Positions 7,615-55,767 of a stretch of 59,113 bases of DNA are shown here, in pieces. The first letter of the stretch is position 1. Every line of letters starts with the position of its first letter. Origin of the DNA: an uncultured Lentisphaeria bacterium (lineage in GTDB: Bacteria > Fidelibacterota > UBA8477 > JABMPR01); the NCBI GenBank assembly GCA_964469505.1, contig CAYXZO010000005.1, forward strand, positions 1 through 59,113, in the 5' to 3' direction. Below the pieces are notes generated by a model. The model made no database searches, was not told the DNA's origin, and saw nothing but the letters and a program-made list of their open reading frames with translations. The translations under genes were made by a program, and so were the position numbers.

Positions 7615-7638
7615 CGGTAACCAAGAGTCCCTCCGAAA

Positions 7639-20790: not shown

Positions 20791-21624
20791 ATGCCCACTA
20801 AAGTTTATTTTGTTTCTGCTGAAGTTGGTCCGTTTTCCGGTGTTACCCCTACGAAAGATTTTTCTTATGAAACTGCCGCAGCTTGGCACAGTCATAAACA
20901 TGACGTTAGAATTTTAACTCCCAGATATAATTTCATCAGCGAACGTAAATACGTCATCCGCGAAGTAATCCGTCTGCGGGAGGTTCCGGTACAGCTAAAG
21001 GACAAGGAGCTGGTCGGTTCGGCTAAATCCGCCTTTCTACCCGGCACTAAGGTCCAGGTGTATTTTGTAGATCAGCCGCGAGAATTCGGCAGCAAAAACA
21101 AAGCTATATTTAAAGTGGCCGAGGGGCGATACAATTCACATAATCCCGAGCGATTTTTCTTTTTTTCTAAATTCAGCCTGGAAAATCTCACCTTTTTGTA
21201 CTGGCAACCGGACTATATCCTGTGCAACGATTGGCCCACCGCCCTGGTACCGGTACTGTTGAAGACCGTGTACCGTGAAGACGATTTTTTTTCCGGCATG
21301 AAAACAGTGCTCAACATTGTAAACCCAGATGAGTTTGGCAAGTTTGAGAAAAAGGAATTTCAATTAAGTGGATTGCCATTAGAAGTAACCGAGGGATTTG
21401 AAAATAATCTGCTGGCTTTAGCGGCTGCTTACGCGGATACGGTTACGGTGATTGATCATCCAGAGCTCAAAACCTGGGAACAGTTACAGCGGAATGAGCT
21501 TTTTAGGGAGCAAGTCGAGGCTAAGGGTGATCAGTTTAAGGTATTTAAACTTTCTAATACCGAGTCTGAGGGATGGCGACGGGTTGCGCAGGAGCTGGAA
21601 GATTTTCTGGCAATGGAAGAATAA
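20791..21624 (+). CDS. Stand-alone glycogen/starch synthase N-terminal (GT5) domain protein, probably non-catalytic
   Basis: FVSAEVGPF, DVRILTPRY..ISERKYVIREVIRL, VQVYFVD, WQPDYILCNDWPTALVPVLLK; lacks KTGGL and the C-terminal GT-B domain. Confidence 0.8.
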   Translation: MPTKVYFVSAEVGPFSGVTPTKDFSYETAAAWHSHKHDVRILTPRYNFISERKYVIREVIRLREVPVQLKDKELVGSAKSAFLPGTKVQVYFVDQPREFGSKNKAIFKVAEGRYNSHNPERFFFFSKFSLENLTFLYWQPDYILCNDWPTALVPVLLKTVYREDDFFSGMKTVLNIVNPDEFGKFEKKEFQLSGLPLEVTEGFENNLLALAAAYADTVTVIDHPELKTWEQLQRNELFREQVEAKGDQFKVFKLSNTESEGWRRVAQELEDFLAMEE

Positions 21625-22869: not shown

Positions 22870-24161
22870 AAACGAAAGCTTTATTAATATCCTGCGCGTT
22901 ATTGATTGGATTCGTCCCTCTCACTCTCCTGGCACAATCACCTCGCAATAGTTTGGCGTACGGTAGTTTTATAGAAAGTACCAATCCCGGGGCTCAGGCA
23001 TTAGGCCATGCCCTTACTGCTTACCATGATTCCATTCAAATCATTGGGGACAATCCGGCGGAGATATACGGTTTCCCGCAAGTAATTGCATTTTTCAGCT
23101 TTGAAAGCCACTCCACTCGTTGGTGGGCGGAAGATCAGGAAATAACCAATGTTGGGGGAGGGTTTGGCTATTTTTCTTTGGCTTTGCCTTTAGGGCAAAG
23201 TGCCGGTGCCCTGTTGAGTGTCGAACCCATCACTGATCTTTCTACCTTGATGAATTACAACGCTGATTCCACGACTAACTTCTCCATGGCTCAAGGGGGT
23301 GGGATTTGGTCAATGGCGGTGGCTTTTGGTTACCGTTTGAACAAAATGACCAGCCTCGGGATGCGGTGGCGGTATCTCTATGGCCTATTTGATCGCCGGG
23401 AAGTTTTGAATTATCCCAACACCCGATATCGCTACAATATTTATCAATTGAAGGGCAGAATCGCCGGGCAGAATCTTCAGCTTGGTATTCAATACGCCTT
23501 TACCCCCCGGTTTAGATTGGGCGGCACTTTTGAATGGGGTTTATCCACGCCAGTATTTGAGGGTAATGCTTATGATTACGATATACCCAGGAGCGCCTCC
23601 AATGACGACTATTTGGAGAAATGGCGCTATTTCCAAGCGGTCGGACAACCGGGTGGCGTAGTTGATACCATACCGTATAACGAGGTCTTAGAGGATTGGC
23701 CTTGGAATGTTGAGATTGGGTTTGCTTATCGCCGAGGTAATGGAGGGCATTTCCTATTGGCGCTGTCTCAACGCTACTTTCCCCAGGAAGCTTTCCGACA
23801 CTCAGAGATTTTCCGTCTACCTGAAGGTTGGCGTGGGATGTCTTCGGGAGCGCTTAAATTCGGATATTACCAAAAGGCTAGGGATGAGGGGAGCCGTTTC
23901 TGGCTTGATCGACTCTCGTGGCGGGTTGGTTTTATTGCCAGAAATCTATACGTAACACCGCGGTCCAACGACTATGTACGGAGTACGCTGATGGCGGTGG
24001 GGTTCTCACTACCGGCTAAACATCACCGGTACCGTATCTCACCAACCTTTGTTTATGAGCACTGGCAAGCTGCCGACGGTTTGCCGGAGGAAAGTCGTTG
24101 GAGTTTAGAGGTTGGGTTATATTTACAAGAAAAATGGTTTGGAAAATTCAGAAGGAGATGA
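22866..24161 (+). CDS. Outer-membrane beta-barrel, FadL/OmpP1-like
   Basis: Signal peptide, PGAQALGHA and NPA plug-like motifs, alternating amphipathic strands, aromatic-rich C-terminus. Confidence 0.7.
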   Translation: MKTKALLISCALLIGFVPLTLLAQSPRNSLAYGSFIESTNPGAQALGHALTAYHDSIQIIGDNPAEIYGFPQVIAFFSFESHSTRWWAEDQEITNVGGGFGYFSLALPLGQSAGALLSVEPITDLSTLMNYNADSTTNFSMAQGGGIWSMAVAFGYRLNKMTSLGMRWRYLYGLFDRREVLNYPNTRYRYNIYQLKGRIAGQNLQLGIQYAFTPRFRLGGTFEWGLSTPVFEGNAYDYDIPRSASNDDYLEKWRYFQAVGQPGGVVDTIPYNEVLEDWPWNVEIGFAYRRGNGGHFLLALSQRYFPQEAFRHSEIFRLPEGWRGMSSGALKFGYYQKARDEGSRFWLDRLSWRVGFIARNLYVTPRSNDYVRSTLMAVGFSLPAKHHRYRISPTFVYEHWQAADGLPEESRWSLEVGLYLQEKWFGKFRRR

Positions 24162-28802: not shown

Positions 28803-28832
28803 AACCGAATGCATCTTCTCATTCGGTTTTTT
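28803..28832 (+). terminator. Intrinsic terminator-like hairpin immediately before the porV RBS
   Basis: AACCGAATG-CATCTTCT-CATTCGGTT (perfect 9 bp) then TTTT; RBS AAGGAG follows at about 28838. Confidence 0.65.
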
Positions 28833-28847
28833 ATTGAAGGAGTACAT

Positions 28848-30146
28848 ATGAGCCTTAAAAAACTTTGCTTGTTAATACTGGTTTTGATGGGTACTTCCCT
28901 GGTGCGAGCCCAGGGGACTGCTAGCGCTATATTTTTACTGATTTCTCCCGGCGCCCGAGCGGGTGGAATGGGTGAAGCTCAAGTAGCCGTGGCTAACGAT
29001 TCCTATGCCAGCTATTGGAATCCTGCCGGTTTGGCGTTTCAAAAAGGAGTTGAGATTTCAGGGATGCACGTTAATTGGCTCCCGGGGCTGGTCAATGATA
29101 TGTACTATGACTTCCTGGCCATACGAGTCCCCGCACCTAGTTATTACGGTGTAGTTGGGGGCCACATCATTTATTTGGATGCTGGAAAACAAACATGGAC
29201 CGATGATCAGGGAAATGAATTAGGAACCTTCAGTACTTATTTTACAGCGGCGGCTCTGAGCTATGCGACTATGTTAAGTGATAACTCATCAATTGGATTC
29301 AATTTCAAGGTGGTCTATCAGCACTTAGCAGATAGAGGTGTGACCGTAGGTTCCGAAAACACCAATCCAATTGCCACCAGCCTTGGCGTGGATATTGGTT
29401 ACCTTAAGCGGCACTGGCTGAGTGACCGATTGGATTTCGGAGTCTTACTTTCCAACGTCGGTCCTAAAGTCACTTTTAATGACAAAGCTCAGGCAGATCC
29501 TATGCCCACCAACCTAAAGGTGGGATGGAACTGGCGGGTGATTAAAGGGCAATACAATACACTGAACCTGGTCTATGATGTGAACAAACTATTAGTAGCC
29601 AGCTATCCCGATATGGATTGGGATGGTGATGGATTCGTAGGCGGCTATGACCAGCATGGCAATAAATACATTGTCAATAACGAGGTTTTACAAGGTGATT
29701 ATAACGCCAAGGGGCAAAGAGAAACAGCCCATACCGATCCATGGTATCTGGCTTTGGTTACTTCCTGGTTGGACGACTGGTACCTGGGTGGGGATCGGGA
29801 TCTGGATAACGACAAGAAAATCGGGGGTTACAATGCCGATACGGTAGCTGTAGCTGGCGGCAAATACAATTCATTGGGGCAATTGGAGGTCGGTAACGCT
29901 AAGCAGAGAAGTTTCAGCGCTGAATTACGTTCACTGGTTCATAACATTGGTCTCGAATACTGGTATAATCAAATGTTTGCTATCCGAGGGGGATTCTATT
30001 ACGACTATGAAGGTAAAATCATTGCTCCGACGCTGGGAATCGGCTTGCGTTACGGCAACTACGGCTTTGACTTCGGCTATATAGTGGAGAAGCAGGATCA
30101 TCCCCTGAACAACACTATGCGCTTTTCGCTGCTCATCAAATTTTAG
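28848..30146 (+). CDS. porV: Type IX secretion outer-membrane barrel PorV family, with EF-hand-like insertion
   Basis: ATG after AAGGAG; AIFLLISPGARAGGMGEAQVAVANDSYASYWNPAGLA, YVNWLPGLVNDMYY-like region, NVGPKVTF, PMPTNLKVG, GLEYWYNQMFAIRGG, HPLNNTMRFSLLIKF with terminal Phe. Confidence 0.85.
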   Translation: MSLKKLCLLILVLMGTSLVRAQGTASAIFLLISPGARAGGMGEAQVAVANDSYASYWNPAGLAFQKGVEISGMHVNWLPGLVNDMYYDFLAIRVPAPSYYGVVGGHIIYLDAGKQTWTDDQGNELGTFSTYFTAAALSYATMLSDNSSIGFNFKVVYQHLADRGVTVGSENTNPIATSLGVDIGYLKRHWLSDRLDFGVLLSNVGPKVTFNDKAQADPMPTNLKVGWNWRVIKGQYNTLNLVYDVNKLLVASYPDMDWDGDGFVGGYDQHGNKYIVNNEVLQGDYNAKGQRETAHTDPWYLALVTSWLDDWYLGGDRDLDNDKKIGGYNADTVAVAGGKYNSLGQLEVGNAKQRSFSAELRSLVHNIGLEYWYNQMFAIRGGFYYDYEGKIIAPTLGIGLRYGNYGFDFGYIVEKQDHPLNNTMRFSLLIKF

Positions 30147-30159
30147 CTCTCGTTTTTAA

Positions 30160-33030
30160 ATGAAACTTCGGCGAGTCCTGTTGGCGGGGGCCGCTATTGT
30201 TGCAGCCCTGGGAAATTCGAAAATCATTGCAGCTCCCCTAAACGCCCAGGAGCTGACAATTGCGGCCATTCGAATTTCATTTCAACCGGATCAGGACCCC
30301 GCAACCGCCGGAAATGGTCTCTTTGTGCTCTCCCCGGATTCACTCCCCGGTTGTTCCGAGCGACGCCTGGATCCGCCCCCACACGATAAAGAATATTTTA
30401 AAGACCACCTGAGAGCAGCCGCATTCTATTGGAGCAAGGTAAGCCGGGGAAACGTGACGATCGATACTTTACACTTGGCAATATTTCCACCTGGTGACAC
30501 TGCAGCCTATCAACTTGCTCATCCAATGTCATATTACCACCCATACATGGATTTGGGGGATACTCTATCCCATCTGGTGGAATTAATCCAGGAAGCGGTA
30601 AATCTGGCAGACGCCGATGTGGATTTCAGTGCCTTTAATACCTTTATTTTCTTTCATGCCGGCTTAGGAGGTGATTTCGCTTTCGTGCTGGATCCCACTC
30701 CCGGCAACATTCCCTCCACCTATTTAAGCCAATCAGATCTCGAAGCTTACGGGGGAATAGCAACTGACGAAGGACCGTTAACGAATGCTATTCTATTACC
30801 CGAAACCCAGAATTTTCTCCAATTTGCGGAAACTCGCACCCTTTTCAATCCCCAACCATGCAATTACCAGTTTGCCCTCAACGGTACGGTAGCGCTGTTG
30901 CTAGGATTCAGAATCGGCCTGACTCCGCTGTATGATCTTTATACCGGGAGAAGTCATGGCGGTCGCTTTGCTTTGATGGATCAGGGTAGCAATAATGCTC
31001 ATGGGCTGGTACCAGCTCCCCCCATGGCCTACAATCGAATTCAGGCCGGATGGGAAGAACCTCAGGTAGCCAATATCGGAGATAGTGTGAGTTTAGATAT
31101 TGATGGTCCACCGGTTAAAATTCCCATCGGTCCCGCGGAATACTATCTCATTGAAAATCGCCAACGCAACCTGGAGCAGCCTATCGGTTGGGAGACCTGG
31201 GTTGACAGCATAACCAGCGACACCTTTTCAGTACAGCTTTCTCCACGAGGGGTAGTGCTCCAGGTTGATGAACAAACGGCAGGACTGCCTGGAAACGGTT
31301 TGTTGATTTGGCATATTGCCGAATTCGCTCGTGGGCCTGATGATAATCCCAACGGCTTGGAACCGTATTTAATCAGCCTGGTGGAGGCCGACGGGGCACC
31401 GGATATCGGCTACCAGAGCCGGATTTTATTTGCCGATTTCCTGGAGACCGGCTGGTGGTTTGATCCCTGGTTTGCCGGAAACCAGGGGTGGTTCGATCTG
31501 AATCGTATCGAACCAGTAATAGGGGACAGTTTGCTGCGATTTACCTCTACCACCCATCCGGCAACCATAAGCAAGCGAGATTACCCAACCTATTTGCGGG
31601 TGGAGAATATCTCGGCTCCCGGGCGGACTATGCACTTCCGCGTTGGCTCCGATCGTGTTGTTCCTTTTCCTGAGGGAGCCGAATTAATTGGAATCGGAAG
31701 CGACTCCACGGGAGAGCCGCTGGTGTGGTTGGATGATGGTCAGGTTTATCTCGTCGGTTACAGTCTTACATCAGATACACTTAAGCCGATTGTTCAATTC
31801 TCCCGGAGACGTGTTTTTAGCTCACCTTCGGATAGTCTGATAGGTTTTTCGGATCCCATATTTGTGATCTTCAATGGCCGGGGTAATGCATTCTATAACT
31901 ATTTGACCGACACGCACATCGAGGATACTACGGGAGGCCCGGTCAAGCAAATTATCCGCACTGAGGATTCGCTTGCATATCTTGTCAGTAAAAACCAATC
32001 CAGTACGATTTTCACCATTCCTGTTGATCTGAGCGCTCCACCGACAGCCCAGGTTACCATTCCTTTGGAAGTGGAGCGTTTCTACCGCTTCGATCCGGAT
32101 TGGGCCTGGGCTACGTCAGATTCGTTGTATACTCCCGTTTCACATCCTTATGCCATTAGTGGAGACGTTTATCAGCCGGTTGAAGTTTTTGAAATGCAAC
32201 CTTCAAGTATGCATCGAACCCCAGTTGGATGGCTGTATGTGGATGAGGATAATCAGTTGGTATTCAGGGCAATAGGGGATACCATTAAAGTTCTGCGGAC
32301 TGCTTTTACCGGCACATTTCTACCTTTTGACATACCCACCGAGCAGGGGCTGGAGGGCATATTTTTTACCACCGGGTATGGTGAGGTCATCAGCAGTAGC
32401 GGTCTAGCGTATTATGGTTCTCCTTTCGTTCTGGATGGTGAACCGTTGGCAAGGCCGGTCATCGTTTCAGCTTTTGATGCTCCAATCGCTTTCTTTTTCC
32501 CTTATGAGGATGGCTATGGGGTTTATGATCTACAGGGTAAGAGGTTGGAAAGAACAATCCTCCCTGAGAGTCCCGCTATTAAAGATGTGTTCTATTCAAA
32601 TCGTGAAACGTTAATAGCTAGCGAATTTTATCTCCTGCGTCTACCCCTTGAGAGTGAATCATCAATTAATCCAAACTTCGCCATAAATTCCCTTCGGGAA
32701 CGAGCAGCTTGGTGGAGTGATTCGTCATTAACTCATGAGGTGGCTTTGATTGAGCCCGGCTCAGGATTCATCTATCCCAATCCGATTCGGGGAAAGACTG
32801 CCACCGTCCGCGTGCATTTAGGGGCGGTAACCTCCTGGCGGATACGCATTTTTACCACTGCGGGCAACGAAGTTATCGATGTTGCCCCTGTGCCCGTTTC
32901 GTCTCATGCTGTAAATGAGTGGCGCTGGGATGTGAGTAATCTCTCCAACGGGCTTTATCTGATACAGCTCGAGGCGGAAGGAAATGGGAAAAAAGAACAG
33001 GTTTTAATCAAAGCGGCGGTGGTGCGGTGA
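30160..33030 (+). CDS. T9SS type A CTD-containing protein with M6 (immune inhibitor A)-like domain lacking HExxH
   Basis: IFFHAGLG, GTVALLLGFRIGLTPLYD in place of GVFAHEYGHxLGLPDxYD, ALMDQGS, EYYLIENRQ, GLLIWHI, LVEADG; C-terminal IYPNP...NGLYLIQL...KAAVVR. Confidence 0.8.
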   Translation: MKLRRVLLAGAAIVAALGNSKIIAAPLNAQELTIAAIRISFQPDQDPATAGNGLFVLSPDSLPGCSERRLDPPPHDKEYFKDHLRAAAFYWSKVSRGNVTIDTLHLAIFPPGDTAAYQLAHPMSYYHPYMDLGDTLSHLVELIQEAVNLADADVDFSAFNTFIFFHAGLGGDFAFVLDPTPGNIPSTYLSQSDLEAYGGIATDEGPLTNAILLPETQNFLQFAETRTLFNPQPCNYQFALNGTVALLLGFRIGLTPLYDLYTGRSHGGRFALMDQGSNNAHGLVPAPPMAYNRIQAGWEEPQVANIGDSVSLDIDGPPVKIPIGPAEYYLIENRQRNLEQPIGWETWVDSITSDTFSVQLSPRGVVLQVDEQTAGLPGNGLLIWHIAEFARGPDDNPNGLEPYLISLVEADGAPDIGYQSRILFADFLETGWWFDPWFAGNQGWFDLNRIEPVIGDSLLRFTSTTHPATISKRDYPTYLRVENISAPGRTMHFRVGSDRVVPFPEGAELIGIGSDSTGEPLVWLDDGQVYLVGYSLTSDTLKPIVQFSRRRVFSSPSDSLIGFSDPIFVIFNGRGNAFYNYLTDTHIEDTTGGPVKQIIRTEDSLAYLVSKNQSSTIFTIPVDLSAPPTAQVTIPLEVERFYRFDPDWAWATSDSLYTPVSHPYAISGDVYQPVEVFEMQPSSMHRTPVGWLYVDEDNQLVFRAIGDTIKVLRTAFTGTFLPFDIPTEQGLEGIFFTTGYGEVISSSGLAYYGSPFVLDGEPLARPVIVSAFDAPIAFFFPYEDGYGVYDLQGKRLERTILPESPAIKDVFYSNRETLIASEFYLLRLPLESESSINPNFAINSLRERAAWWSDSSLTHEVALIEPGSGFIYPNPIRGKTATVRVHLGAVTSWRIRIFTTAGNEVIDVAPVPVSSHAVNEWRWDVSNLSNGLYLIQLEAEGNGKKEQVLIKAAVVR

Positions 33031-36000
33031 AACGACCCCTGGGGTTGTTTTGCATCATTCTGCTACTTGGGGTAAAACTTTCCGCCCAAGCCCGTTTTAC
33101 TCACTCTGAGCTGACCTGGCGTACCTTGGAAGGGGAGCACTTTGTAGTGCATTACCATCAGGGCACCGCCTGGACCGCCACTGAAGTTTTAAATGTGGCG
33201 GAGGACATCTATAAGCCGATAACCGAACTATACCAATACCAACCTGAAAACAAGACTCATCTAATCATCTGGGATACGGATGATTTCAGCAATGGTGCTT
33301 CGTACTACTTTGATAACAAGATAGATATATGGGCCATGCCTTTGGATTACAAGCTAAGGGGCTCTCATTATTGGTTACGTGATGTGGTAACCCACGAGTT
33401 TACCCACATCGTCAGCTTACGAGCGGCCCGGAAATTCAAAGGTTCAATCTCCGCCAGCTATTTTCAGTTCATTCAATACGAACCGGAACGGCGGGACGAT
33501 GTGTTATACGGCTATCCCAACGCCCTGGTATCCTATCCTTTGCCCAGCGTGGTTGTACCCATGTGGTGGGCGGAAGGCGTGGCGCAACATCAGGCCAATG
33601 GAAGCAGATACGATTACTGGGACAGTATTAGGGATATGATTCTCCGGGACCGCTGGTTGCATAAACGTCTTCTGTCCTTTAATGAAATGGATGGTTTCGG
33701 CAAAGGGGGAATAGGCAATGAAAGCGTGTATAACCAGGGGTTCTCTTTTGTGAATTACCTTGCAGAACATTATGGTGATGAAATCCTGGAAAGAATCACG
33801 GAGCGCTTGACGAATCCGTGGAACTATTCGTTTTATAAAGCTCTTTCAGAGCTTACAGGTCGCTCTAAAACGCAACTTTACCGAGACTGGATTGCTTACT
33901 TAACCGAAAGATTCAAAGCCGAGCTACCTAGCACGGATGAACAAACTTCCGTCTCGATTTTTCAAACCCGCGGGTCAGCCAATTTCTATCCGCGACATCA
34001 TTCAGCCTCAGGACGTTTGGCATTCATCTCCAACATGGGGGAGGCCTATTTCGGTAGAACGGCCCTGTTTGTACAACAGCCTGGTGAAGAACCGCGACGA
34101 GTAACCGCTGCTGCCGGTTTTGCTTGGAGTCCAATTACCGACACCCTAGTGGTGGTTAAAAAAAGCTTCTATGACCAGGGAATTCCAGGCGGTTATTCAT
34201 TCAAAGATACAGAAGGGCCCCATTTTTCCTTTTTGCACAAGAAGGTTAAGGCTACGTGGCGATTGCCATTGCAGGGCTCTCGCTATTTTGATCTTTATCT
34301 GTTGCATCCCGATAATCCTGACAAACTTAGAAGGTTGACCAACGGTGCTCGGGCGAAAAACCCGGTTTGGTCACCTGATGGCAAACAAATAGCGTTTATT
34401 AATCTCCGGGATGGCACCAATAACATTTGTATTGTGGAACCGGCTCACCCCGATAGCGTACGGCAGCTAACCCGATTTACCCCCGGTACCCAGATTTACA
34501 CCTTATCCTGGTCTCCTGATGGGAGCCGGCTGTTGTTTGACCGGGCGACAGGGTACAACCGGGATATTTACATGTACGATTTCAGAACGAAGGAAGTGCG
34601 ACCAGTATTTGCCGAGAAGTGGGACGAGCGAAATCCTTTTTGGATCACCGATTCCACCCTGTTGTTCAGCGATGATCGTACCGGAATCTTTAACCTTTAC
34701 TGGGCTGAGCTGAACCTGGGCAAGGTTCGGCAGCTTACCGCCGTTAATGGGGGAGCTTTTCAGGCTGAACTATGGCAGGATACACTTTTTTTCAGCTACT
34801 ATGACAGTTTGGGCTACAAATTAGCCTATCTTCCCTTGAAAAAGGCTTTATGGAAGGCTGCTGAATCAGGTTCTCTTAGCTACTTAAGCAGAATACTTAA
34901 GGCCGACTATGTGCGGGAATTGGCGCCGCGTCAGGGAGTGCCCTATCGTTTCCAGGCCGGCCCCATGTTGATTGCACCTCGGTTACAAGTGGAGTATGAT
35001 GCCGCCAAAGGTAGTACTTATCTCAAACCTGGGTTTTATTTCTTTTCCAGTGAATGGATAAACAAATTCAACCTTCTGGGGGGATTTGATTTCGGGTTTA
35101 ACAAAGATTTGGACTTTTTCTTTCTAGCCGAATATCGCGGTTTTCGCCCCCTCTTACGCCTGGAATTCTACCGACTGGTGCGCAATACACAGGAGGAATT
35201 GAGTTATCTCAATGGTATCTACAAGGTTCAAAGCCGACTTCAGTTTACCATGACTCAGGGGGTAGCGTCCATAGAATTGCCCATTGGCGGCAGCCACAAT
35301 CTTATGGGAGATTTCACGTTAACCAATTATAACACATACCTCGCGCCTCATGTGCTGAACGGACTTCCGCTGGGGGGGATCAGCTATGATTATTTCAAGG
35401 GATGGGATGCCGGTTTGATCTATCGAGGAGACTGGTTGAAACCTGAACCGTCCCAGGACATCAACCCCCAGGGATTGCAGGTGGAGATCGGCGCGCGACG
35501 CAATCATCATTTGTTCTTGAGCGGATATGGCTACAACGAAGATACGGGAAATTGGGGTAATATTTACGACACCTTCGATTATTGGCGATGGAGTTTCAAT
35601 GTTTTCTACGCCCGTTCCTTGCCCGCAATCTTAGGTGGGAAAATTGGTCTGCGGGGAATAGGCGCTGGACTAAGTCGTAATTCAATCGATTCCTTTTTCT
35701 ACGAGTTTGGTGGTGGAGCTCCAGGGCTTAGAGGTTACCCCTACTTTTCCCTTGGTGGAACCAGAAAGTTAATTTTTTCTGGCTTCTGGCGTCGGCCGCT
35801 CTTTCGGGATGCCTATTGGAAGGTAGGGCATTATACATTGAAGGATGTTTATTTCGGTATTCATTGGCAAGTAGGGACGGCATGGGTCCCCGATAGCTCT
35901 TTGTGGAAACCTGGCTTGGATTTCAATGAAAGAGGTCGTGAACTTCTGAGAGATCTTAATCAGGCCTCCTGGTTACAGGATTTTGGATTCAGCTTGCGTG

Positions 36001-36149
36001 TGGGAGGTTTTTCGTTTTACGCCTATCCCACAGCGCTGGAAATCTCCGCATACTACGCACCTGAACAATTAGCTTACCGGGAAGACCCGGATATTAAATA
36101 CGGACAGGAATGGCGCTTTTATTGGAGCCTTTTATTTGCATTCAATTAA
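33027..36149 (+). CDS. Gluzincin-like peptidase plus TolB/PD40 propeller plus C-terminal outer-membrane barrel
   Basis: Signal peptide; VVTHEFTH...WWAEGVAQ; NPVWSPDGKQIAF, LSWSPDGSRLLF PD40 repeats; amphipathic strands ending YWSLLFAFN. Confidence 0.78.
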   Translation: MKRPLGLFCIILLLGVKLSAQARFTHSELTWRTLEGEHFVVHYHQGTAWTATEVLNVAEDIYKPITELYQYQPENKTHLIIWDTDDFSNGASYYFDNKIDIWAMPLDYKLRGSHYWLRDVVTHEFTHIVSLRAARKFKGSISASYFQFIQYEPERRDDVLYGYPNALVSYPLPSVVVPMWWAEGVAQHQANGSRYDYWDSIRDMILRDRWLHKRLLSFNEMDGFGKGGIGNESVYNQGFSFVNYLAEHYGDEILERITERLTNPWNYSFYKALSELTGRSKTQLYRDWIAYLTERFKAELPSTDEQTSVSIFQTRGSANFYPRHHSASGRLAFISNMGEAYFGRTALFVQQPGEEPRRVTAAAGFAWSPITDTLVVVKKSFYDQGIPGGYSFKDTEGPHFSFLHKKVKATWRLPLQGSRYFDLYLLHPDNPDKLRRLTNGARAKNPVWSPDGKQIAFINLRDGTNNICIVEPAHPDSVRQLTRFTPGTQIYTLSWSPDGSRLLFDRATGYNRDIYMYDFRTKEVRPVFAEKWDERNPFWITDSTLLFSDDRTGIFNLYWAELNLGKVRQLTAVNGGAFQAELWQDTLFFSYYDSLGYKLAYLPLKKALWKAAESGSLSYLSRILKADYVRELAPRQGVPYRFQAGPMLIAPRLQVEYDAAKGSTYLKPGFYFFSSEWINKFNLLGGFDFGFNKDLDFFFLAEYRGFRPLLRLEFYRLVRNTQEELSYLNGIYKVQSRLQFTMTQGVASIELPIGGSHNLMGDFTLTNYNTYLAPHVLNGLPLGGISYDYFKGWDAGLIYRGDWLKPEPSQDINPQGLQVEIGARRNHHLFLSGYGYNEDTGNWGNIYDTFDYWRWSFNVFYARSLPAILGGKIGLRGIGAGLSRNSIDSFFYEFGGGAPGLRGYPYFSLGGTRKLIFSGFWRRPLFRDAYWKVGHYTLKDVYFGIHWQVGTAWVPDSSLWKPGLDFNERGRELLRDLNQASWLQDFGFSLRVGGFSFYAYPTALEISAYYAPEQLAYREDPDIKYGQEWRFYWSLLFAFN

Positions 36150-40239: not shown

Positions 40240-41111
40240 TTTTAGGTTTCATTCTAAGAGAAGGCTTTTCGGCCTATAGGCGGGCTAAACTGCCCTTTAC
40301 TATTTCGATTCTGACCATAGCCCTTTCGGTTACCATGATCGGTGTAGGCATGTTCGCCGTGGATAATATGTTGCTGTTCCTGGAGAATCTACAATCGGAT
40401 TTCGACGTGGAGATTTTCTTCCAGCCGGATGCTTCCGATGGCCAGATTGAATCCGCCGCCCGCAAGATAGCAGCACATCCCTATGTGAGTCGTTTCGTCT
40501 ATATTTCCAAGGAGGATGCTGCGGAAAAGTTTGCCGAAGCTTTCGGAGAGGACGTCTATACTCTCCTGGACTACAATCCATTACCGGCGTCAATTCAAGT
40601 GTTCTTCAAGAAAGTTTATCGTACCCCGACCTATATCGCATCCTTTTTAAGGGAGGTGCAAAAAATGCCCGGGGTGGATGAGATTAATTACAAAAAAGAT
40701 CTAATTGCCCGCCTGCAGAAGGTACTGCACTTTATCATCCTCGCTGGCGGTGTAGTGCTATTTTTCCTATTTCTGGGAGCTGTGTTCCTGACCTCCAATA
40801 CTATTAAGCTTAGCATTATGAGTCGCTTTGATTTTATAGAGACCCTGCGTTTGATTGGGGCTGGTGATTTCACCATTAAGGCTCCATTCTTGTTGGAAGG
40901 CGTGATCCAAGGGTTTCTGGGAGGATTGTTAGCTATCGGTGCACTCTATGGCTTGTTTGTCACCCTTACCAGGTTGTTCCAGGGACAATTCCATTTGGAA
41001 GGAATTCAGGAAGTTCCCCTGGCCGCGCTTGTGCTGCTTTTGTTGGGTATTTTCTTAGGTTACCTGGGAAGCCTGCGCGCCGTAAGACGTTTCGTAAAGC
41101 TTGTTATTTAA
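40236..41111 (+). CDS. ftsX: Cell division permease FtsX
   Basis: YISKEDA, NPLPASI, SNTIKLSI, LIGAGDFTIKAPFLLEG. Confidence 0.93.
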   Translation: MILGFILREGFSAYRRAKLPFTISILTIALSVTMIGVGMFAVDNMLLFLENLQSDFDVEIFFQPDASDGQIESAARKIAAHPYVSRFVYISKEDAAEKFAEAFGEDVYTLLDYNPLPASIQVFFKKVYRTPTYIASFLREVQKMPGVDEINYKKDLIARLQKVLHFIILAGGVVLFFLFLGAVFLTSNTIKLSIMSRFDFIETLRLIGAGDFTIKAPFLLEGVIQGFLGGLLAIGALYGLFVTLTRLFQGQFHLEGIQEVPLAALVLLLLGIFLGYLGSLRAVRRFVKLVI

Positions 41112-41154
41112 TAACTTACGAACCTAATCCACCGTTAAAACTGGGATTTAGACC

Positions 41155-41186
41155 TTGCTTTGATATTGGGGTGAGGATATTATAAT
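41155..41186 (+). promoter_or_regulatory. Probable sigma70 promoter of hrcA
   Basis: TTGCTT-17-TATTAT, overlapping a perfect TATAAT at 41181. Confidence 0.45.
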
Positions 41187-41192
41187 TCCGCC

Positions 41193-42242
41193 ATGGTAAA
41201 GAATAAAAAACAAGCCATATCATCACTATCTGAACGTGATGAACAAGTCCTGGCAGCCTTGATCAGGGATTACGTCAGGAGGGGTGTCCCGGTTGGCTCC
41301 CAACGGATTGTGGATATTAGTAGTTTACCGGTCCGGGCGGCCACCATCAGGGCCATTTTACACCGTTTGGAAGAATCCGGTTTTTTATATCAACCTCATA
41401 CGTCAGCAGGACGAATTCCCACTGCTAAAGGCTACCGTTATTATATCGATTATTTAATGGCCCCACAGAAACCGGGTCCAAGCATGCAGCGCAAATATCA
41501 ACGCTTCCTAAAACGCTTCGCCCGGGATATGGATCGACTCATTGAGCAAACCAGCCGTTTCCTCGGAGCTGAGGCGGCTTCGCTGGTCATTATCAGCAAA
41601 CCGGTATATGCCCTGGCTACCATCAAGAGTGTTCAGTTAGTGGATCTGGATGCCGAACACTTACTTCTGGTAGTACATCTGAATCATGGTTATCTGAAAA
41701 CTACGGCCCTCAAAGTTCGTAATCCCATTCCCCGGTCGGCTCTAAGGGAAGCTGAAGCTATTTTAGAGGATCTTTTCGGGGGTTACACTCTGGAAGAAGT
41801 TATCAACCTGAAAGAGGAACATCGAAAACGGCTACCGGTAGTGAGTAACTCCATGGTAGATCTGGTTTTGACCAATTTGAAGTCGGTGATAGAGAGTTTG
41901 ACTACTCCTCGTTACACTTATTACGGGACCTATCAACTGCTGCAATATCCGGAATTTGCCGAGGCTGAGCGAATAGAGCCGCTGCTGGAACATCTGGAGG
42001 ATCAAACTTTGTACCGGGACTTGCCGGTAGTCACTTCTTACCGTGAACCCCAGGTGTTCATAAGTAGCGAAGCAGGCCGACATTATTTGAAACCTTTTTC
42101 AGTTCTCTCCATCAGATATGCCGGGAACTTTTTTGAAGGAACGATTCATTTGATTGGGCCGATGCGGATGTATTATGAACGGAACTACGGTTGGCTGACG
42201 TATACAGCAGAGGAGATAAGTCGTTTTCTGGGGAGAGTATGA
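41193..42242 (+). CDS. hrcA: Heat-inducible transcription repressor HrcA
   Basis: PVGS, ATIR..L..LEESGFLYQPHTSAGRIPTAKGYRYYID, GTIHLIGPMRMYY; precedes grpE. Confidence 0.92.
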   Translation: MVKNKKQAISSLSERDEQVLAALIRDYVRRGVPVGSQRIVDISSLPVRAATIRAILHRLEESGFLYQPHTSAGRIPTAKGYRYYIDYLMAPQKPGPSMQRKYQRFLKRFARDMDRLIEQTSRFLGAEAASLVIISKPVYALATIKSVQLVDLDAEHLLLVVHLNHGYLKTTALKVRNPIPRSALREAEAILEDLFGGYTLEEVINLKEEHRKRLPVVSNSMVDLVLTNLKSVIESLTTPRYTYYGTYQLLQYPEFAEAERIEPLLEHLEDQTLYRDLPVVTSYREPQVFISSEAGRHYLKPFSVLSIRYAGNFFEGTIHLIGPMRMYYERNYGWLTYTAEEISRFLGRV

Positions 42243-43989: not shown

Positions 43990-44388
43990 GTGTTGAATTT
44001 TACTACTCAGGAGCGCCGCATCCTTTTATTCCTGGCAGTATCCCTGCTGTTGGGGGGTATTCTGCGTTGGCGACAAAATCACCAGCAATTACGGGAATTG
44101 GAGGCCATAACTCCAGCACACATTGCACCACCACCCTTACAAATTCTGACTGCACCGCAAGACTCCGACTTGATCGCGAATCCGCTACCCAATTTGATCG
44201 ATATAAATGAGGCTAATGAACGGGAATTGGCAACTCTGCCAGGAATTGGGTTGAAACTGGCGCGTAGAATCGTTACTTATCGCCAAAAGCATGGGAAATT
44301 CAAACATTTGCACGATATTCAGCGCGTTCGGGGAATCGGTCCTGCATTGTACCGCCGGATTGCGCCCCGAATTACAATTTCGAAATAG
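43990..44388 (+). CDS. comEA: ComEA family helix-hairpin-helix DNA-binding protein
   Basis: N-terminal TM; IDINEANERELATLPGIGLKLARRIVTYR, LHDIQRVRGIGPALY. Confidence 0.88.
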   Translation: MLNFTTQERRILLFLAVSLLLGGILRWRQNHQQLRELEAITPAHIAPPPLQILTAPQDSDLIANPLPNLIDINEANERELATLPGIGLKLARRIVTYRQKHGKFKHLHDIQRVRGIGPALYRRIAPRITISK

Positions 44389-44397
44389 GGAGGTCCT

Positions 44398-46620
44398 GTG
44401 GCTAAAGACATTTTCGGCAACCACAAAGTAAATACCGCCATCATCATCGTATTGGCTTTTATGTTTGTCTCAGTCATCTATTTCCCCGATCGAATTTGGA
44501 GACATGAGCGGGAGCTTCGGGATATTGCCCGTTTCAGGATGGAGGCCATCAATCAAGGGGAAAAACTGTTCTATATCTTGACCGAGGAATACACCACTAG
44601 GCCAGATATCCTGTTCCATGTAGTAAACGCTTCCCGCGATAGTGCCCTGGAGAGACTCGGCGATTCCAATGCAACATTCCCAGAGACTCTGCGGTACGTC
44701 TTTCCAGGTAAACAGCTTACCATTAAATACACTCCTGAGTACCGTCAGAAATATGTCGAAGAACACGTAGCCTTATTCAAGAAACTAAAACCCAATCATT
44801 ATTTCCCACCAGAACAGGCCAAAGCCTTCATCGAAACAGTGAAGGTGTACTTCGATCGGGGCAATTTCGTAGGCGAACAATCCGTGCGGCTTGGGAAAGA
44901 CAGTCTGAGATTTACTGTCCCCGACAAGTATGACATCCTTTATCAGAACGGCAAATTTAGGATGTTTAACGTACTCACCGGTAGTGCTACTGAAGATCCT
45001 GGGTTCGCTAATCCATTGGTTAATGCGGTCCTGGATTCCCTGGAACGCAATCCGGATTTAAGTGGAGAGGTCGTATTTACCGGATTGTACCATGAGCCGA
45101 TAACCTTTTCATATACTGTTCCCGACAATTTCTCGCAGCTACTGGAACGCTCTAAAACCCAGCTTAAAAAATTCTTTAAAATCGATCCTCTGGACTCTCT
45201 GGCATACGGTGACACTCTTTACAGCATAGCTCTGGAGAAGTTTTTCACTTTCGACTCCATTCCGGAGCAATTCGAGATTACTTACCGGGATACCACCGGG
45301 GATACTGTGATCGTGAATGTCCCGGTTGATATGGAAGGGATGCAGGACGGTCTTGATAAACGGCGTAACACTCTTTATAAAGCACTCTCCGGTGGCTATC
45401 GCGAGCCCAATCCCATTATCGCTCAGAAAATCATCGATGCCGTCAAGGACTCTTTGGCCAGCGATTCGGTGTTTATCGGCACTCATAAGATTACCCTAGA
45501 CTTGTCTGAAATTCCCTTCAAAATCAGAATTGACCGTACCATTCCGCTGAACCAAATCCAGATCAATAAGGATATGTACACCCGTCTGGAACCGTGGAAG
45601 ATTGGAGTAAATCTGGATTCGGTAGCTGTGGAAGCCGTGGAGTATGTGGCTGATACATTGATGAAGAGCAGGGATTTCAAAGATTGGCAAATCTATGCTG
45701 CTGAAGGGGATTCCCTTAATTTGTTCATCCCCGAAGACTTCCTGAGAATGTACGATGACATGAATCTGCGTTTGTATAAGGCCCTAACCGGTGAATACAC
45801 CAACATTCACGACTATGCATACAATGTGATTCGTAAAGTTGAAGCTTTAGCACAGCAGGACTCCGGTTCTTATTTCGGTGAACATGTGTTAGATATTCCC
45901 GCTGATACGATCGTGGCGCGGGTTGGCTCCGACTATCCGGAAATATATGACTCTACCTTCGTGGTTTATAAAGATACGGTGGTCCAACTTCCCGATAGTA
46001 GTTTTTACGGTGTTTGGTTCCGGCTGCAGAGATATGCCGTACCGGTAGAACAGCCAGACACTCTGCCCTTCGTAAAAGCTGTTGACGGCCAGTTGTATTA
46101 CAATTTCCATCAAGCTGACTCCACCCAGGATTTCATGGTGTTTGAGTTGCGGGATAAACGACACGAAAAGGCCTTCTGGGGGGACAATCGTTATCTGGTG
46201 AGCTTCAACAACGACAGCACTCTGGATGCGGTTTTCCTCTTGATCAGTGACACCACCGGAGCTGATTCCGCCTTGCAAGCTAGTTGGAAACCCTTCACCG
46301 TCGTTTCACCTGAATTCGTGGTGGGGCCGGAAGAAAAGAGTCTGATTATGGCCAAAGACTCTTTCTACGCCTGGGTTGACACAGTTGTAGCTTTAAAGTA
46401 CCGTAAAATTCAGATTAAAAAGCCGTACAAGTTCGCTAATGAACTCAAATACTGTCCTGTGACCGGTTTACCCTTTAGAATTACTGTTAGGTACATGGTC
46501 AACCTGCGGATTGAATCGCCCATCGAGGAGAAAGTCACTTTCAGACGCTATCTGTTCTTCACGGAAGTCGATACCAACCACGGCTATATCCAGGACGGTG
46601 AGCCTAGCTGGTCCAAGTGA
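44398..46620 (+). CDS. Large membrane-anchored hypothetical protein with diverged internal repeats
   Basis: 740 aa, single N-terminal TM, recurring LY(K/N)(A/V)L(T/S)G motifs, C-terminal CPVTGLPF...HGYIQDGEPSW. Confidence 0.75.
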   Translation: MAKDIFGNHKVNTAIIIVLAFMFVSVIYFPDRIWRHERELRDIARFRMEAINQGEKLFYILTEEYTTRPDILFHVVNASRDSALERLGDSNATFPETLRYVFPGKQLTIKYTPEYRQKYVEEHVALFKKLKPNHYFPPEQAKAFIETVKVYFDRGNFVGEQSVRLGKDSLRFTVPDKYDILYQNGKFRMFNVLTGSATEDPGFANPLVNAVLDSLERNPDLSGEVVFTGLYHEPITFSYTVPDNFSQLLERSKTQLKKFFKIDPLDSLAYGDTLYSIALEKFFTFDSIPEQFEITYRDTTGDTVIVNVPVDMEGMQDGLDKRRNTLYKALSGGYREPNPIIAQKIIDAVKDSLASDSVFIGTHKITLDLSEIPFKIRIDRTIPLNQIQINKDMYTRLEPWKIGVNLDSVAVEAVEYVADTLMKSRDFKDWQIYAAEGDSLNLFIPEDFLRMYDDMNLRLYKALTGEYTNIHDYAYNVIRKVEALAQQDSGSYFGEHVLDIPADTIVARVGSDYPEIYDSTFVVYKDTVVQLPDSSFYGVWFRLQRYAVPVEQPDTLPFVKAVDGQLYYNFHQADSTQDFMVFELRDKRHEKAFWGDNRYLVSFNNDSTLDAVFLLISDTTGADSALQASWKPFTVVSPEFVVGPEEKSLIMAKDSFYAWVDTVVALKYRKIQIKKPYKFANELKYCPVTGLPFRITVRYMVNLRIESPIEEKVTFRRYLFFTEVDTNHGYIQDGEPSWSK

Positions 46621-46641
46621 GGACCGGCCCGACGGACAATC

Positions 46642-47583
46642 ATGCTGGGAATTGCCGTCGACAACCAAGCATTGCACTATGCCCAGTTAGTGGACACCGG
46701 CGGGATAACTTCCATTGAAAGTGTTGGTTCGCTCGCACTGACAATTCCCACGGAAGCCTTTCTCACCGCTCCGCTACCGGCTTCATTCACCCATACCTTG
46801 GTCCAGCTTCGGGAAAAACTGGAGTTTCCCGATCGGCGGGTAATCTGCGTACTCCCCATGAGATGGGTGCCCCATTGTTTTCAACGAATGGATAAAGAAT
46901 TACCCGAATCCGATTGGCAGAAATTTTTGGACTGGCAAGGCGGCACCATCATGGAGGTGAATCCCCGTGAATATCGGTTGATACACCAGGAACTTGAGTT
47001 GGACAACGCCACCGACGTAAGGTATTTCATAAGTGTGGCATTGCCCGTAAAACTGCACATCAAACTGAAAAATGCTTTCGAGCAAGCCGATTGGAATCTG
47101 GAAAAACTCATTCTGGAATCGGAGGCGCTTGGTAACTATTTGTTACTGGATTCCATCGAGGCTGAAAGTCAGGATCTCACGGGGCTCTTCAGAACCCGTA
47201 ACCCCCAGGAAGGTCAATTTCTTCTTTTTAAAAACCAAGAATGGGTGGGGGAGACCTACTTGTTTCGTGACGCCGAAGAAACCTGGCGCACTGAGGTTGT
47301 CTGGACGGCCGTGAACGACACCTTCGCCATAGTCGATGAAGTGCGTGATGCCCTTAATGGCTTACCATCCACCCAGGACTCCCCATTTTTAAACTGGTAT
47401 TACCTGTGTCAAGCGGACGATATGCCTGAGTGGCGTGAAAATCTGGAACATTTGGGGGTGGGCCGACCGCTCTTCATGGAAGATTTATTTACGCTCAGAG
47501 ATATGCCGGAGGAAAAGCTCTCTACCTTGGCCGGCGCCATGGGAGCCTTAATTCCTTTATTGCCGTTAAATCATGCGGATTAA
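46642..47583 (+). CDS. PilM-like (actin-fold) protein, divergent
   Basis: MLGIAVDNQALHYAQL and FISVALP...AFEQADWNLEKLILESEAL resemble PilM segments; followed by an INLL-starting gene. Confidence 0.5.
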   Translation: MLGIAVDNQALHYAQLVDTGGITSIESVGSLALTIPTEAFLTAPLPASFTHTLVQLREKLEFPDRRVICVLPMRWVPHCFQRMDKELPESDWQKFLDWQGGTIMEVNPREYRLIHQELELDNATDVRYFISVALPVKLHIKLKNAFEQADWNLEKLILESEALGNYLLLDSIEAESQDLTGLFRTRNPQEGQFLLFKNQEWVGETYLFRDAEETWRTEVVWTAVNDTFAIVDEVRDALNGLPSTQDSPFLNWYYLCQADDMPEWRENLEHLGVGRPLFMEDLFTLRDMPEEKLSTLAGAMGALIPLLPLNHAD

Positions 47584-48595
47584 CCTACTCACCGATAAGG
47601 GTGTTCTGGCGGCAGTCCCTTTTCAGAGGCCGGAAGCCCCGGCTCTACCTGAAATAGAACCGATACCTTCAACAAAACCATCGGTAGCACCCCCTACCAA
47701 AGCGATTCCCTGGCGACTGGTAGCCATAGGTTTCTCTCTGGCTGCGGTTGTATTTCTACTGGTGGGCTATGCAACGAACTGGTTCGATGGAGGGCATTTC
47801 TTTGGCTTGAATCGTCCTTCACAGGAGAGTGGAGAAATAAAGTACGCAACGATCAAACAAGTTCTCCTGGAAGACAGTTTGCGTCATGTTCTAAGAGATA
47901 GAGTGTTACCCGATTCTCTCTTCAATGCTCTATTGCCGCCGCCTTCGAGAGATACGGGATTCATGTACGCTGAGATTCTACTGGAGACCTTGGCAACGAC
48001 AAGCGGACCCGTTGAAACGCAGACCACGGCTCCTAAACCCCAGCCAGTCTACGGAGGTCCCATTTGGCAACAAGAGAATCGCGGATTGCTGCTTTTAGCA
48101 GCCCACCTGGCGCAAACAGTGGATTCTTTGCAAATCCAGGGAAAGGTTAAACTTTCCAAGAGCAGGATAGATTTGCAGTTGACGGTCCCCAATAGCCGCT
48201 CTAAAACCACCCTTGATAGTATTCTCCAGCGTTTTTCAGGGGGACGGTTTGCCTGGCGCCTTGAGGGGGAGACTCTTCGACTGAACCAACCTTTAAACTT
48301 GATTTTACCTCCTTTAGCTTCTCCCGGCTATCATGGAGGCCTTTGGACACTCCTGGATTCGCTGCTCCTGCCGTATGATCGTTGGCTGGAGGCCCTGGAA
48401 GTAGATACGGCGCGGGGAATTGCCAATAACCCGGCTCAGTTCTATTTCCGCATGTCACCCAAAACAGCCGCAGAGATGTTCCGGACTTGGGCTAACAGTC
48501 CTGCTAATTACGCTATTGACTCCCTTTATCTGGTTGTTACTGCCCGCGACCAAAGCGTGACTGTTGCACTTCATTTTCTGCAAGGAGAGCTATGA
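47573..48595 (+). CDS. PilN-like bitopic membrane protein, divergent
   Basis: Starts MRINLL (PilN INLLP PilM-binding motif), Pro-rich linker, single TM, periplasmic region. Confidence 0.5.
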   Translation: MRINLLTDKGVLAAVPFQRPEAPALPEIEPIPSTKPSVAPPTKAIPWRLVAIGFSLAAVVFLLVGYATNWFDGGHFFGLNRPSQESGEIKYATIKQVLLEDSLRHVLRDRVLPDSLFNALLPPPSRDTGFMYAEILLETLATTSGPVETQTTAPKPQPVYGGPIWQQENRGLLLLAAHLAQTVDSLQIQGKVKLSKSRIDLQLTVPNSRSKTTLDSILQRFSGGRFAWRLEGETLRLNQPLNLILPPLASPGYHGGLWTLLDSLLLPYDRWLEALEVDTARGIANNPAQFYFRMSPKTAAEMFRTWANSPANYAIDSLYLVVTARDQSVTVALHFLQGEL

Positions 48596-55515: not shown

Positions 55516-55692
55516 AGGCTTCTTCCTTCTTTTTTGAAAGCTGAAATTAAAGGGAGGTCGGGGATTTCAAAGATATATCGTTTTATTCGTCGGAATAATT
55601 GTGGCAATTTCAAAGGTGTTTTAAAGGGGATTGAATTAGCCCCGTTGATAAAAATCTGCATTGCTGGGATGGCAATGTGAAGACCTGATTTG

Positions 55693-55767
55693 TCGGGGTG
55701 AGAGGATTCGAACCTCCGACCTCTTCGTCCCGAACGAAGCGCGCTAACCGGACTGCGCTACACCCCG
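55693..55767 (-). tRNA. tRNA-Pro (CGG)
   Basis: Reverse complement CGGGGTGTAGCGCAGTCCGGTTAGCGCG-CTTCG-TTCGGGA-CGAAG-AGGTCGGAGGTTCGAATCCTCTCACCCCGA. Confidence 0.97.

Follow-up and report, generated by a model that had tools for sequence, protein, structure and literature searches.

A 59,113-nucleotide contig deposited as DNA of an uncultured Lentisphaeria bacterium (CAYXZO010000005.1; hereafter the window) carries, between dnaJ and the rsmD-coaD gene pair, a block of four plus-strand genes that encode a small helix-hairpin-helix (HhH) protein of the ComEA type and three proteins of 740, 313 and 340 amino acids (aa), which we refer to by their lengths (Table 1). An earlier note on this DNA had read these open reading frames (ORFs) as comEA followed by the genes for a giant anchored protein, a PilM-like protein and a PilN-like protein, and had suggested that they specify a lineage-specific competence or envelope machine; all four ORFs were found at the positions and on the strand given there. 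In our best explanation, to which we assign a probability of roughly one half, the block encodes a PilM-PilN-type scaffold of the cell envelope whose most likely role is the capture or uptake of DNA.

The genes ftsE-ftsX-hrcA-grpE-dnaJ flank the block upstream, and rsmD-coaD-pta flank it downstream. The 340-aa gene overlaps the 313-aa gene by 11 nucleotides (nt) and rsmD by 4 nt, and scans for promoters and terminators detected no internal signal above chance in the block. A CIRCE inverted repeat (TTAGCACTC-N9-GAGTGCTAA, with up to three mismatches) is present nowhere in the window, although it contains the hrcA-grpE-dnaJ genes (positions 41111-41193 were examined). Hydropathy analysis places a single transmembrane segment in each of the HhH, 740-aa and 340-aa proteins and none in the 313-aa protein. 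The 740-, 313- and 340-aa proteins have no match in Pfam or NCBIfam, Pfam scans at E ≤ 10 with eight orthologues of each yielded no recurring family, and their orthologues are labelled 'hypothetical protein' by NCBI; PADLOC reported no defence-system match for the block proteins. Standard hidden Markov models (HMMs) hence miss these three proteins, just as the earlier note had expected.

Table 1. The four genes of the block and the parts of their products, with positions in the window (residue numbers are those of the respective protein).
Feature	Position	Strand	Basis or remark
ComEA-type HhH protein, 132 aa	43990-44388	+	GTG start directly after the dnaJ stop codon
740-aa bitopic protein	44398-46620	+	ORF; no known family
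740-aa protein: N-terminal helix, residues 9-62	44422-44583	+	AlphaFold2 DSSP H9-62, one continuous 54-residue helix
740-aa protein: seven tandem alpha-beta-beta-alpha repeats, residues 66-522	44593-45963	+	Periodic secondary structure of the AlphaFold2 model
740-aa protein: beta-rich C-terminal domain, residues 523-712	45964-46533	+	AlphaFold2 strands 522-706
740-aa protein: conserved tail, residues 713-740, and stop codon	46534-46620	+	RRYLFFTQVDSSHGxIxDGExSW
313-aa cytoplasmic protein, predicted PilM-like actin fold (ASKHA)	46642-47583	+	AlphaFold2 and Foldseek
340-aa bitopic protein, putative PilN-like partner, begins MRINLL	47573-48595	+	Topology, motif, gene coupling
340-aa protein: N-terminal cytoplasmic motif, residues 1-17	47573-47623	+	Reads MRINLLTDKGVLAAVPF here; candidate docking peptide
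340-aa protein: transmembrane helix, residues 49-67	47717-47773	+	Hydropathy 2.44 over 19 residues
340-aa protein: conserved periplasmic C-terminal domain, residues 165-340	48065-48592	+	Conservation

Related loci were compared in three partly overlapping sets, seven loci found through exact-protein look-ups, 26 taken from genomes and 16 taken from metagenomes. The order dnaJ-HhH(~150 aa)-~740-~313-(340-415)-rsmD-coaD is invariant in every locus fetched, while the outer genes vary: pta and icd occur at some loci but not at others, and glgC/glgA stand in their place at some. The overlap from the 313-aa into the 340-aa gene measures −11 nt in 53 of 53 loci, that from the 340-aa gene into rsmD −4 nt in 49 of the 53. 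At every locus reaching that far the HhH gene lies directly upstream of the 740-aa gene, with a spacing of 9-14 nt where gene calls existed (the window and loci L005-L011). Because synteny is thus kept across the relatives, with the same four genes in the same order at every related locus, the four ORFs are real genes and not chance ORFs. These data also bear on a further explanation, namely that four functionally unrelated genes merely share an operon and that the fold match of the 313-aa protein described below reflects a generic ASKHA scaffold. The operon does mix hrcA, grpE, dnaJ, rsmD, coaD and pta; however, the 313/340 overlap kept at all 53 loci, the constancy of the four-gene order amid changing outer genes and the complementary topologies of the products (three bitopic proteins and a soluble one) speak against this explanation, which we regard as improbable.

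A scan of 185,579 species genomes yielded 26 loci with the block. Twenty carry Neomarinimicrobiota or Marinimicrobia in their titles, five carry 'uncultured Lentisphaeria' and one carries 'bacterium'; since one contig bears both the Lentisphaeria and the Neomarinimicrobiota label in NCBI, the former is probably mis-assigned. Judged from these sequences, the block appears restricted to Marinisomatota (SAR406), the only group in which it was found among the recovered loci, and both the protein searches and the genome scan bear out the lineage specificity proposed earlier. An identical locus was seen in hydrothermal-vent and microbial-mat metagenomes, and a search of sequencing runs for the locus returned DNA metagenomes only and no RNA runs. 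Relative to three relatives, the 740-aa protein is 43-50% identical, a level similar to that of FtsX, HrcA and RsmD, while the 313- and 340-aa proteins, with 24-28% identity, evolve faster than the 740-aa protein. All three proteins keep their length and are therefore all under selection.

In the 132-aa product of the first gene, an N-terminal membrane anchor precedes the helix-hairpin-helix DNA-binding domain at the C-terminus (residues 69-130); the transmembrane segment, weaker in the window protein, scores clearly in the orthologues. It matches HHH_3 (PF12836) with an E-value of 2.5e-20, passes the ComEA HhH-repeat model TIGR00426 (56.2 bits; cutoff 53.1) and matches the solved ComEA structures 8DSS, 8DFK and 2DUY in a PDB search; it stays below the cutoff of the full-length comE model TIGR01259 (61 bits; cutoff 152). 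The assignment of this gene to comEA is consequently upheld in the sense that its product is a membrane-anchored HhH protein of the ComEA type; NCBI names an orthologue 'helix-hairpin-helix domain-containing protein'.

For the 313-aa protein, an AlphaFold2 model was built without templates from five sequences (predicted local distance difference test, pLDDT, 77.6; predicted template-modelling score 0.80). Foldseek returned 123 matches to this model in the PDB at E ≤ 0.001, and the top ten are all PilM proteins (E-values of 3e-15 to 2e-11, TM-scores of 0.56-0.65), including those of Pseudomonas aeruginosa (5EOX, 5EOY, 5EOU, 5EQ6), Myxococcus xanthus (3JC8) and Thermus thermophilus (2YCH); two of the ten (5EOU and 2YCH) are complexes of PilM with a PilN peptide. 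FtsA ranks second (5e-10 to 1e-7, about five orders of magnitude weaker than PilM) and the EpsL/GspL cytoplasmic domain third (from 3e-8, about seven orders weaker than PilM), followed by generic ASKHA proteins. The model therefore supports a soluble actin fold of the type found in PilM, FtsA and the cytoplasmic part of GspL, including the 1C subdomain typical of PilM and FtsA, and closest to PilM, in keeping with the PilM-like nature proposed for this protein.

Sequence comparisons of the same protein found next to nothing. Neither the window protein nor eight orthologues matched the PilM HMMs (PF11104/TIGR01175) at E ≤ 10, the family profile had no match among PDB sequences, and hhalign of the family against HofM, HofN, HofO and HofP of Escherichia coli gave nothing. 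A word-indexed homology search saw only the query itself because the relatives are just 24-28% identical; an exhaustive HMMER search of 1.84 billion representative proteins recovered four others. We also mapped a 30-sequence alignment onto the model, a shallow alignment used without residue-level structural superposition. In agreement with the earlier note, the nucleotide-binding motif DxG is not conserved in this family: strand 1 has the sequence MLAIHIS, domain 2 has VVLENR in its first strand, and 'STGD' takes the place of the adenosine motif GGGA, so that at none of these three sites is a nucleotide motif conserved at ≥90%. Lys12 (compare Thermus K26) occurs in most relatives and is His in the window protein. 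The residues that are conserved at ≥90% lie nearly all in the N-terminal half (AQLV14-17, G21, E26, G29, FPD62-64, WFP75-77, D84, L87, D91, K94, L96, W98, HQ115-116 and P135), and the C-terminus is acidic (…ERFxED) and forms no amphipathic membrane-targeting helix. With no conserved nucleotide-binding motif in alignment and model, the 313-aa protein looks like a nucleotide-free scaffold.

Thirty distinct orthologues of the 340-aa protein share the N-terminal pattern M-[KR]-[IFL]-[DN]-L-[RLK]-x-[DES]-x-G-[ILVM]-L-x4-F, in which Ile3 and Leu5 are conserved; most relatives read MKIDLRKD, and the start of E. coli HofN (MNPPINFLP) resembles this N-terminus. In the family a basic stretch, ETLRRRH, precedes the transmembrane segment, and beyond the membrane follow a variable acidic proline-rich linker, a conserved VLPDxxFNxLMP segment and a conserved C-terminal domain of ~175 aa, for whose residues 165-340 a crude propensity estimate gave a hint of alternating helix and strand-pair elements. 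The PilN HMM (PF05137), Pfam and NCBIfam gave no match to this protein, nor did SPOR or any other peptidoglycan-binding domain. PDB profile searches with the full-length family, its C-terminal domain or its N-terminal 30-mer, hhalign comparisons with E. coli HofM/N/O/P and with the 740-aa family, and a search with the concatenated 313-aa and 340-aa alignments were likewise empty. Its topology, its motif and the coupling of its gene make a PilN-like nature of the 340-aa protein plausible. At one locus from a metagenome-assembled genome (L020, 8154-9547), the gene is split into two ORFs of 248 and 185 aa, through a frameshift or assembly error or through a real disruption.

Two other pairings of an actin-like protein with a bitopic partner have to be considered in the light of these data; by fold rank and gene context, both are less likely than a PilM-PilN-type pair. 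In the first, the two proteins would form an accessory pair of the divisome or elongasome resembling FtsA-FtsN, the actin-fold protein binding a peptide of a bitopic regulator of cell-wall synthesis. FtsA is the second-best fold group, which includes an FtsA:FtsN(1-29) complex, and the ETLRRRH stretch before the membrane, the long variable linker and the C-terminal globular domain recall FtsN; however, PilM matches better by about five orders of magnitude in E-value, the acidic C-terminus of the 313-aa protein lacks the membrane-targeting helix, the 340-aa protein matches no SPOR or peptidoglycan-binding domain, and the block stands outside a dcw/mre cluster, with mreBCD-PBP2-rodA 25 kb away. 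We consider such a pair very unlikely. Still slightly more doubtful is a split, degenerate assembly platform of the GspL/GspM type, as in type II secretion. It would accord with the significant fold match of the EpsL/GspL cytoplasmic domain (E 3e-8), with the nature of GspL as a fusion of a PilM-like and a PilN-like part, and with the generally known lack of nucleotide binding in GspL, to which the 313-aa protein is compared from sequence and model. Against it stand the rank of the GspL fold below PilM and FtsA, the encoding of the two halves by separate genes, as in PilM/PilN, and the lack of any GspE/F/D/C or pseudopilin gene nearby in the window.

The 740-aa protein is bitopic, as the earlier note had it, with a single N-terminal transmembrane segment. 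Its homologues form 26 clusters among 5.8 billion proteins (40-49% identity) and measure 735-746 aa, save one of 819 aa and one fragment. An AlphaFold2 model built on 25 sequences (pLDDT 81) divides it into the four parts listed in Table 1. The 54-residue helix comprises the transmembrane segment (residues 11-29 by hydropathy), an invariant P30 and a long amphipathic helix, and H9, N12, P30, W34, E37, R47, M48, E55 and Y59 are invariant in the N-terminal region of the family. The repeats that follow span ~55-72 aa each, with the recurrent motif [FY]xG[ED]..., VP[DE]xF..Y, LYxxLTG. In non-circular profile-profile comparisons, units 1, 2, 6 and 7 are mutually related (probabilities of 77-94%, E-values of 1e-5 to 1e-7) and unit 3 is related to unit 5 at a probability of 48%, while unit 4 is divergent. 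The beta-rich domain holds a conserved C-x-V-T-x-x-P-[FY]-R-[IV]-T-[IV]-R segment. The tail is modelled as disordered (pLDDT 28-43), yet R717, F721, D725, G729, D733, G734, S737 and W738 are invariant in it; it is likely a partner-binding or oligomerisation element.

Foldseek found nothing significant for the whole 740-aa model in the PDB or BFVD, and a repeat-unit profile matched nothing in the PDB beyond marginal de novo designed ferredoxins. We rejected the identification of this protein as a type IV pilin or pseudopilin: a Gly/Phe-x-x-x-Glu site is not conserved in the family alignment, so that the absence of a prepilin cleavage site claimed earlier holds, the family N-terminus reads MxKDVFxNHRxNT… with a non-conserved Gly7, and the transmembrane segment contains no Glu. 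Its sole pilin-like trait is the long helix with a Pro after the transmembrane segment in the model. Also rejected were a secretin, an MCE, POTRA, LysM or BON repeat protein and a GldM-like component of the type IX secretion system (T9SS), none of which was indicated by an HMM match; nor are these identities compatible with the predicted topology, in which each repeat has two strands and two helices. The 740-aa repeat protein is a candidate new domain family. In one lineage (L010, 6001-8460; L036, 5001-7460; P0018) it occurs as an 819-aa version, with an acidic low-complexity insertion of ~80 aa inside the hairpin of repeat 4, the most divergent repeat.

Encoded by genes that are translationally coupled and never separated in the recovered loci, the three bitopic proteins and the one soluble PilM-fold protein most likely form one complex anchored in the inner membrane. 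The explanation that we favour pictures it as an envelope complex specific to Marinisomatota and constitutively co-expressed, with a very divergent PilM-PilN-type pair at its core. The N-terminal peptide of the 340-aa protein would dock into the N-terminal half (the 1A/1C side) of the 313-aa protein and so tether it to the inner membrane, as residues 1-15 of PilN do with PilM, while the periplasmic C-terminal domain of the 340-aa protein would associate with the 740-aa protein. The latter, with its anchor helix, seven repeats, beta-rich head and conserved tail, would take the connector role of PilO/PilP, and the membrane-anchored ComEA-type protein would sit alongside with its HhH domain in the periplasm. 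Such a scaffold could capture and handle periplasmic double-stranded DNA, taken up for nutrition or transformation, and the motor and channel components for uptake would be encoded elsewhere. DNA capture or uptake is our best functional guess, which we infer from the adjacency of the ComEA-type gene.

A bolder and rather unlikely version holds that the block specifies a reduced DNA-uptake or trans-periplasmic machine of Marinisomatota in which the pilus is absent or minimal and an uncleaved, membrane-anchored 740-aa rod is held by a nucleotide-free PilM-PilN-like clamp. The rod would then replace the PilO/PilP connector, and perhaps a retractile pilus as well, and hand DNA to the anchored ComEA. 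If true, this machine would be new in its architecture, whether it belongs to the type IV filament superfamily or derives from it, and the repeat protein would constitute a new fold family.

Several observations weigh against a PilM-PilN-type scaffold for DNA uptake. No gene for a pilin, a prepilin peptidase, PilB/T, PilC, PilO/P/Q or ComEC is present in the window, and none for a pilin, PilB/T, PilC, PilO/P/Q or ComEC lies within the 5-6 kb flanks of the related loci; the absence of pilO/P/Q remarked on in the earlier note therefore extends to the relatives. The five models of the 313-aa protein, made from five sequences only, range in pLDDT from 57 to 78. PilN proteins start …I-N-L-L-P, and the earlier note had taken MRINLL for the PilN peptide that docks into PilM. 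That start is indeed present on a bitopic protein, within a conserved motif of a coupled gene; the exact MRINLL, however, is peculiar to this genome. The Asn of 'INLL' is confined to the window protein, Pro occurs in no member of the family, and the likeness to 'INLLP' reduces family-wide to I-x-L. Moreover, the cytoplasmic segment (48 aa here and up to ~90 aa in relatives) is longer than that of PilN. The block also lies inside a tightly packed housekeeping operon, and HhH/ComEA-family proteins are widespread; adjacency to the HhH gene may therefore not mean a shared function. A further point comes from Helicobacter pylori, whose orphan pilMNO operon, unaccompanied by other pilus genes, acts in a non-pilus role, PilN and PilO forming a cage of the flagellar motor (PMC10823254; 10.1101/2023.04.27.537399).

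This co-option makes a scaffold unrelated to DNA a serious rival, one that we judge possible but clearly behind the favoured explanation. The PilM-PilN-like pair would have been recruited for another job and would form, with the 740-aa protein, a lineage-specific structure spanning the periplasm. Such a structure might tether the envelope, surround another machine as a cage or organise cargo of the outer membrane or the T9SS, and only operon packing would have placed the ComEA-type gene next to it. The H. pylori precedent is joined on this side by the lack of type IV filament core genes nearby, by the position of the block among dnaJ, rsmD and coaD with no promoter or terminator of its own above chance, and by the conservation of the 740-aa protein at a housekeeping level. 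On the other hand, the HhH gene is found directly upstream of the 740-aa gene at every locus reaching that far, and a membrane-anchored DNA-binding domain in the periplasm has no obvious use outside DNA handling. The competence machine envisaged in the earlier note is so far unsupported, the adjoining ComEA gene being its sole basis. The comM gene, to which that note appealed as well, does lie in the window (391-1926, minus strand); as support it adds nothing, being ~42 kb distant, on the opposite strand and a member of a widespread family.

Few uncultured bacterial lineages are as abundant in the dark ocean and in oxygen-minimum zones as SAR406/Marinisomatota, whose envelope biology is, to our knowledge, essentially unknown. 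Our literature search brought up no work on Marinimicrobia that deals with pili or competence, nor any description of the module. We consider it best classed as a variant of the PilM-PilN scaffold that is combined with a novel repeat protein and missed by current HMM libraries. After H. pylori, it would be a second case of PilMN-type scaffolds found outside canonical pilus operons; such scaffolds are invisible to sequence HMMs, so that surveys of type IV filaments may undercount them. In addition, this module, which every sampled Marinisomatota genome carries and which is annotated as 'hypothetical' despite its housekeeping-level conservation, offers a hypothesis, DNA uptake or another trans-envelope machine, that can be tested in a heterologous host.

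Other features of the window, all on the plus strand unless stated otherwise, deserve mention. A selenoprotein is likely encoded at 6371-7486 with an in-frame TGA at 6518-6520: the listed ORF 6683-7486 (267 aa) matches the NCBIfam model 'UshA-like (seleno)protein' NF041198 (UshA_like_PCGU) from profile position 99 onwards, and upstream in the same frame lie an ATG at 6371, a lipoprotein-like signal (…FYGC) and D-P-C-G-TGA, the motif P-C-G-U with TGA read as selenocysteine. A type IX secretion neighbourhood (28809-36149), which fits an organism of the FCB group, starts with PorV (28809-30146) and continues with a 956-aa T9SS-dependent, M6-like inactivated metalloprotease carrying a Por_Secre_tail sorting domain (30160-33030) and a 1040-aa protein with TolB-like PD40 beta-propeller repeats (33027-36149). 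A 431-aa ORF (22866-24161) has a full-length but sub-threshold match to the BamG family of beta-barrel assembly (NF053685; E 7.5e-27; 94 bits, cutoff 250), and the 373-aa ORF directly upstream (21748-22869) has no match at all. The genes for a PspC-domain protein (8843-9463), a 557-aa orphan (9447-11120) and a GWxTD-domain protein (11117-12373) overlap or abut within 8843-12373, which suggests another uncharacterised envelope operon. A 277-aa ORF (20791-21624) contains only the Glyco_transf_5 domain (starch synthase N-terminal domain); the glgA products of relatives near that region measure ~471-478 aa, and the ORF may be a truncated or split gene. The 208-aa RNase H protein at 12355-12981 also matches RVT_3 ('reverse transcriptase-like') and is probably an ordinary RNase HI. 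The only Rfam and ARAGORN matches in the window are tRNA-Gly(GCC) (7542-7615) and tRNA-Pro(CGG) (55692-55767, minus strand).

Among the known systems with which the block can be compared, FtsA-FtsN resembles it in having an actin-like protein with a 1C subdomain, to which the N-terminal peptide of a bitopic partner binds from the cytoplasm, as it would here; it differs in its weaker fold match, its C-terminal membrane-targeting helix, its SPOR domain and its cell-division gene context. In GspL/GspM, too, an actin-like cytoplasmic domain free of nucleotide is tethered to a bitopic membrane segment (fold match E 3e-8). GspL, however, is one fused polypeptide clamping GspE, whereas in our block two separate genes encode the parts, the fold ranks lower and a type II secretion context is missing. 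The HofMNOPQ system of E. coli and ComABCDE of Haemophilus form a further comparison. HofM lacks the N-terminal DxG (…IGLHL, compared with MLAIHI here), HofN starts with …INFLP, and the function of these operons is linked to DNA uptake; in contrast to our block, genes of the PilO, PilP and secretin types follow in the Hof/Com operons, and hhalign found nothing between the 313- and 340-aa families and HofM/N/O/P.

ComEA of Vibrio, Thermus and Bacillus is matched by the HhH domain of the 132-aa protein, which passes the ComEA HhH-repeat model, and the N-terminal membrane anchor is shared with Bacillus ComEA; unlike ComEA, the 132-aa protein is short, stays under the full-length comE cutoff and has no comEC beside it in the window. 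The H. pylori PilMNO proteins are, like the products of our block, very remote PilMN(O) homologues missed by annotation and encoded among housekeeping genes with no pilus genes nearby, but a recognisable PilO and a flagellar motor are present there, whereas in our block no PilO-like gene lies nearby and the pair is accompanied by a ComEA-type protein and a giant repeat protein.

In a DNA translocator, PilM links the PilMNO platform to the ATPase, and ATP binding by Thermus PilM is dispensable for stimulation of the pilus ATPase (PMC6325625). In comparison with PilM-PilN of type IVa pili and of the Thermus DNA translocator (2YCH, 5EOU, 3JC8), the 313- and 340-aa proteins have no detectable similarity to the PilM_2/PilN models and do not conserve the nucleotide residues, the 340-aa partner is about twice as long, with a cytoplasmic segment of 48-90 aa and no Pro in its motif, and the pair is preceded by the 740-aa repeat protein instead of being followed by pilO, pilP and pilQ. 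What the two systems have in common is that the fold of the 313-aa protein best matches PilM, that the bitopic partner is encoded immediately downstream and carries a conserved hydrophobic-[ND]-L motif at its extreme N-terminus, and that the pair adjoins a protein of the DNA-uptake type, ComEA.

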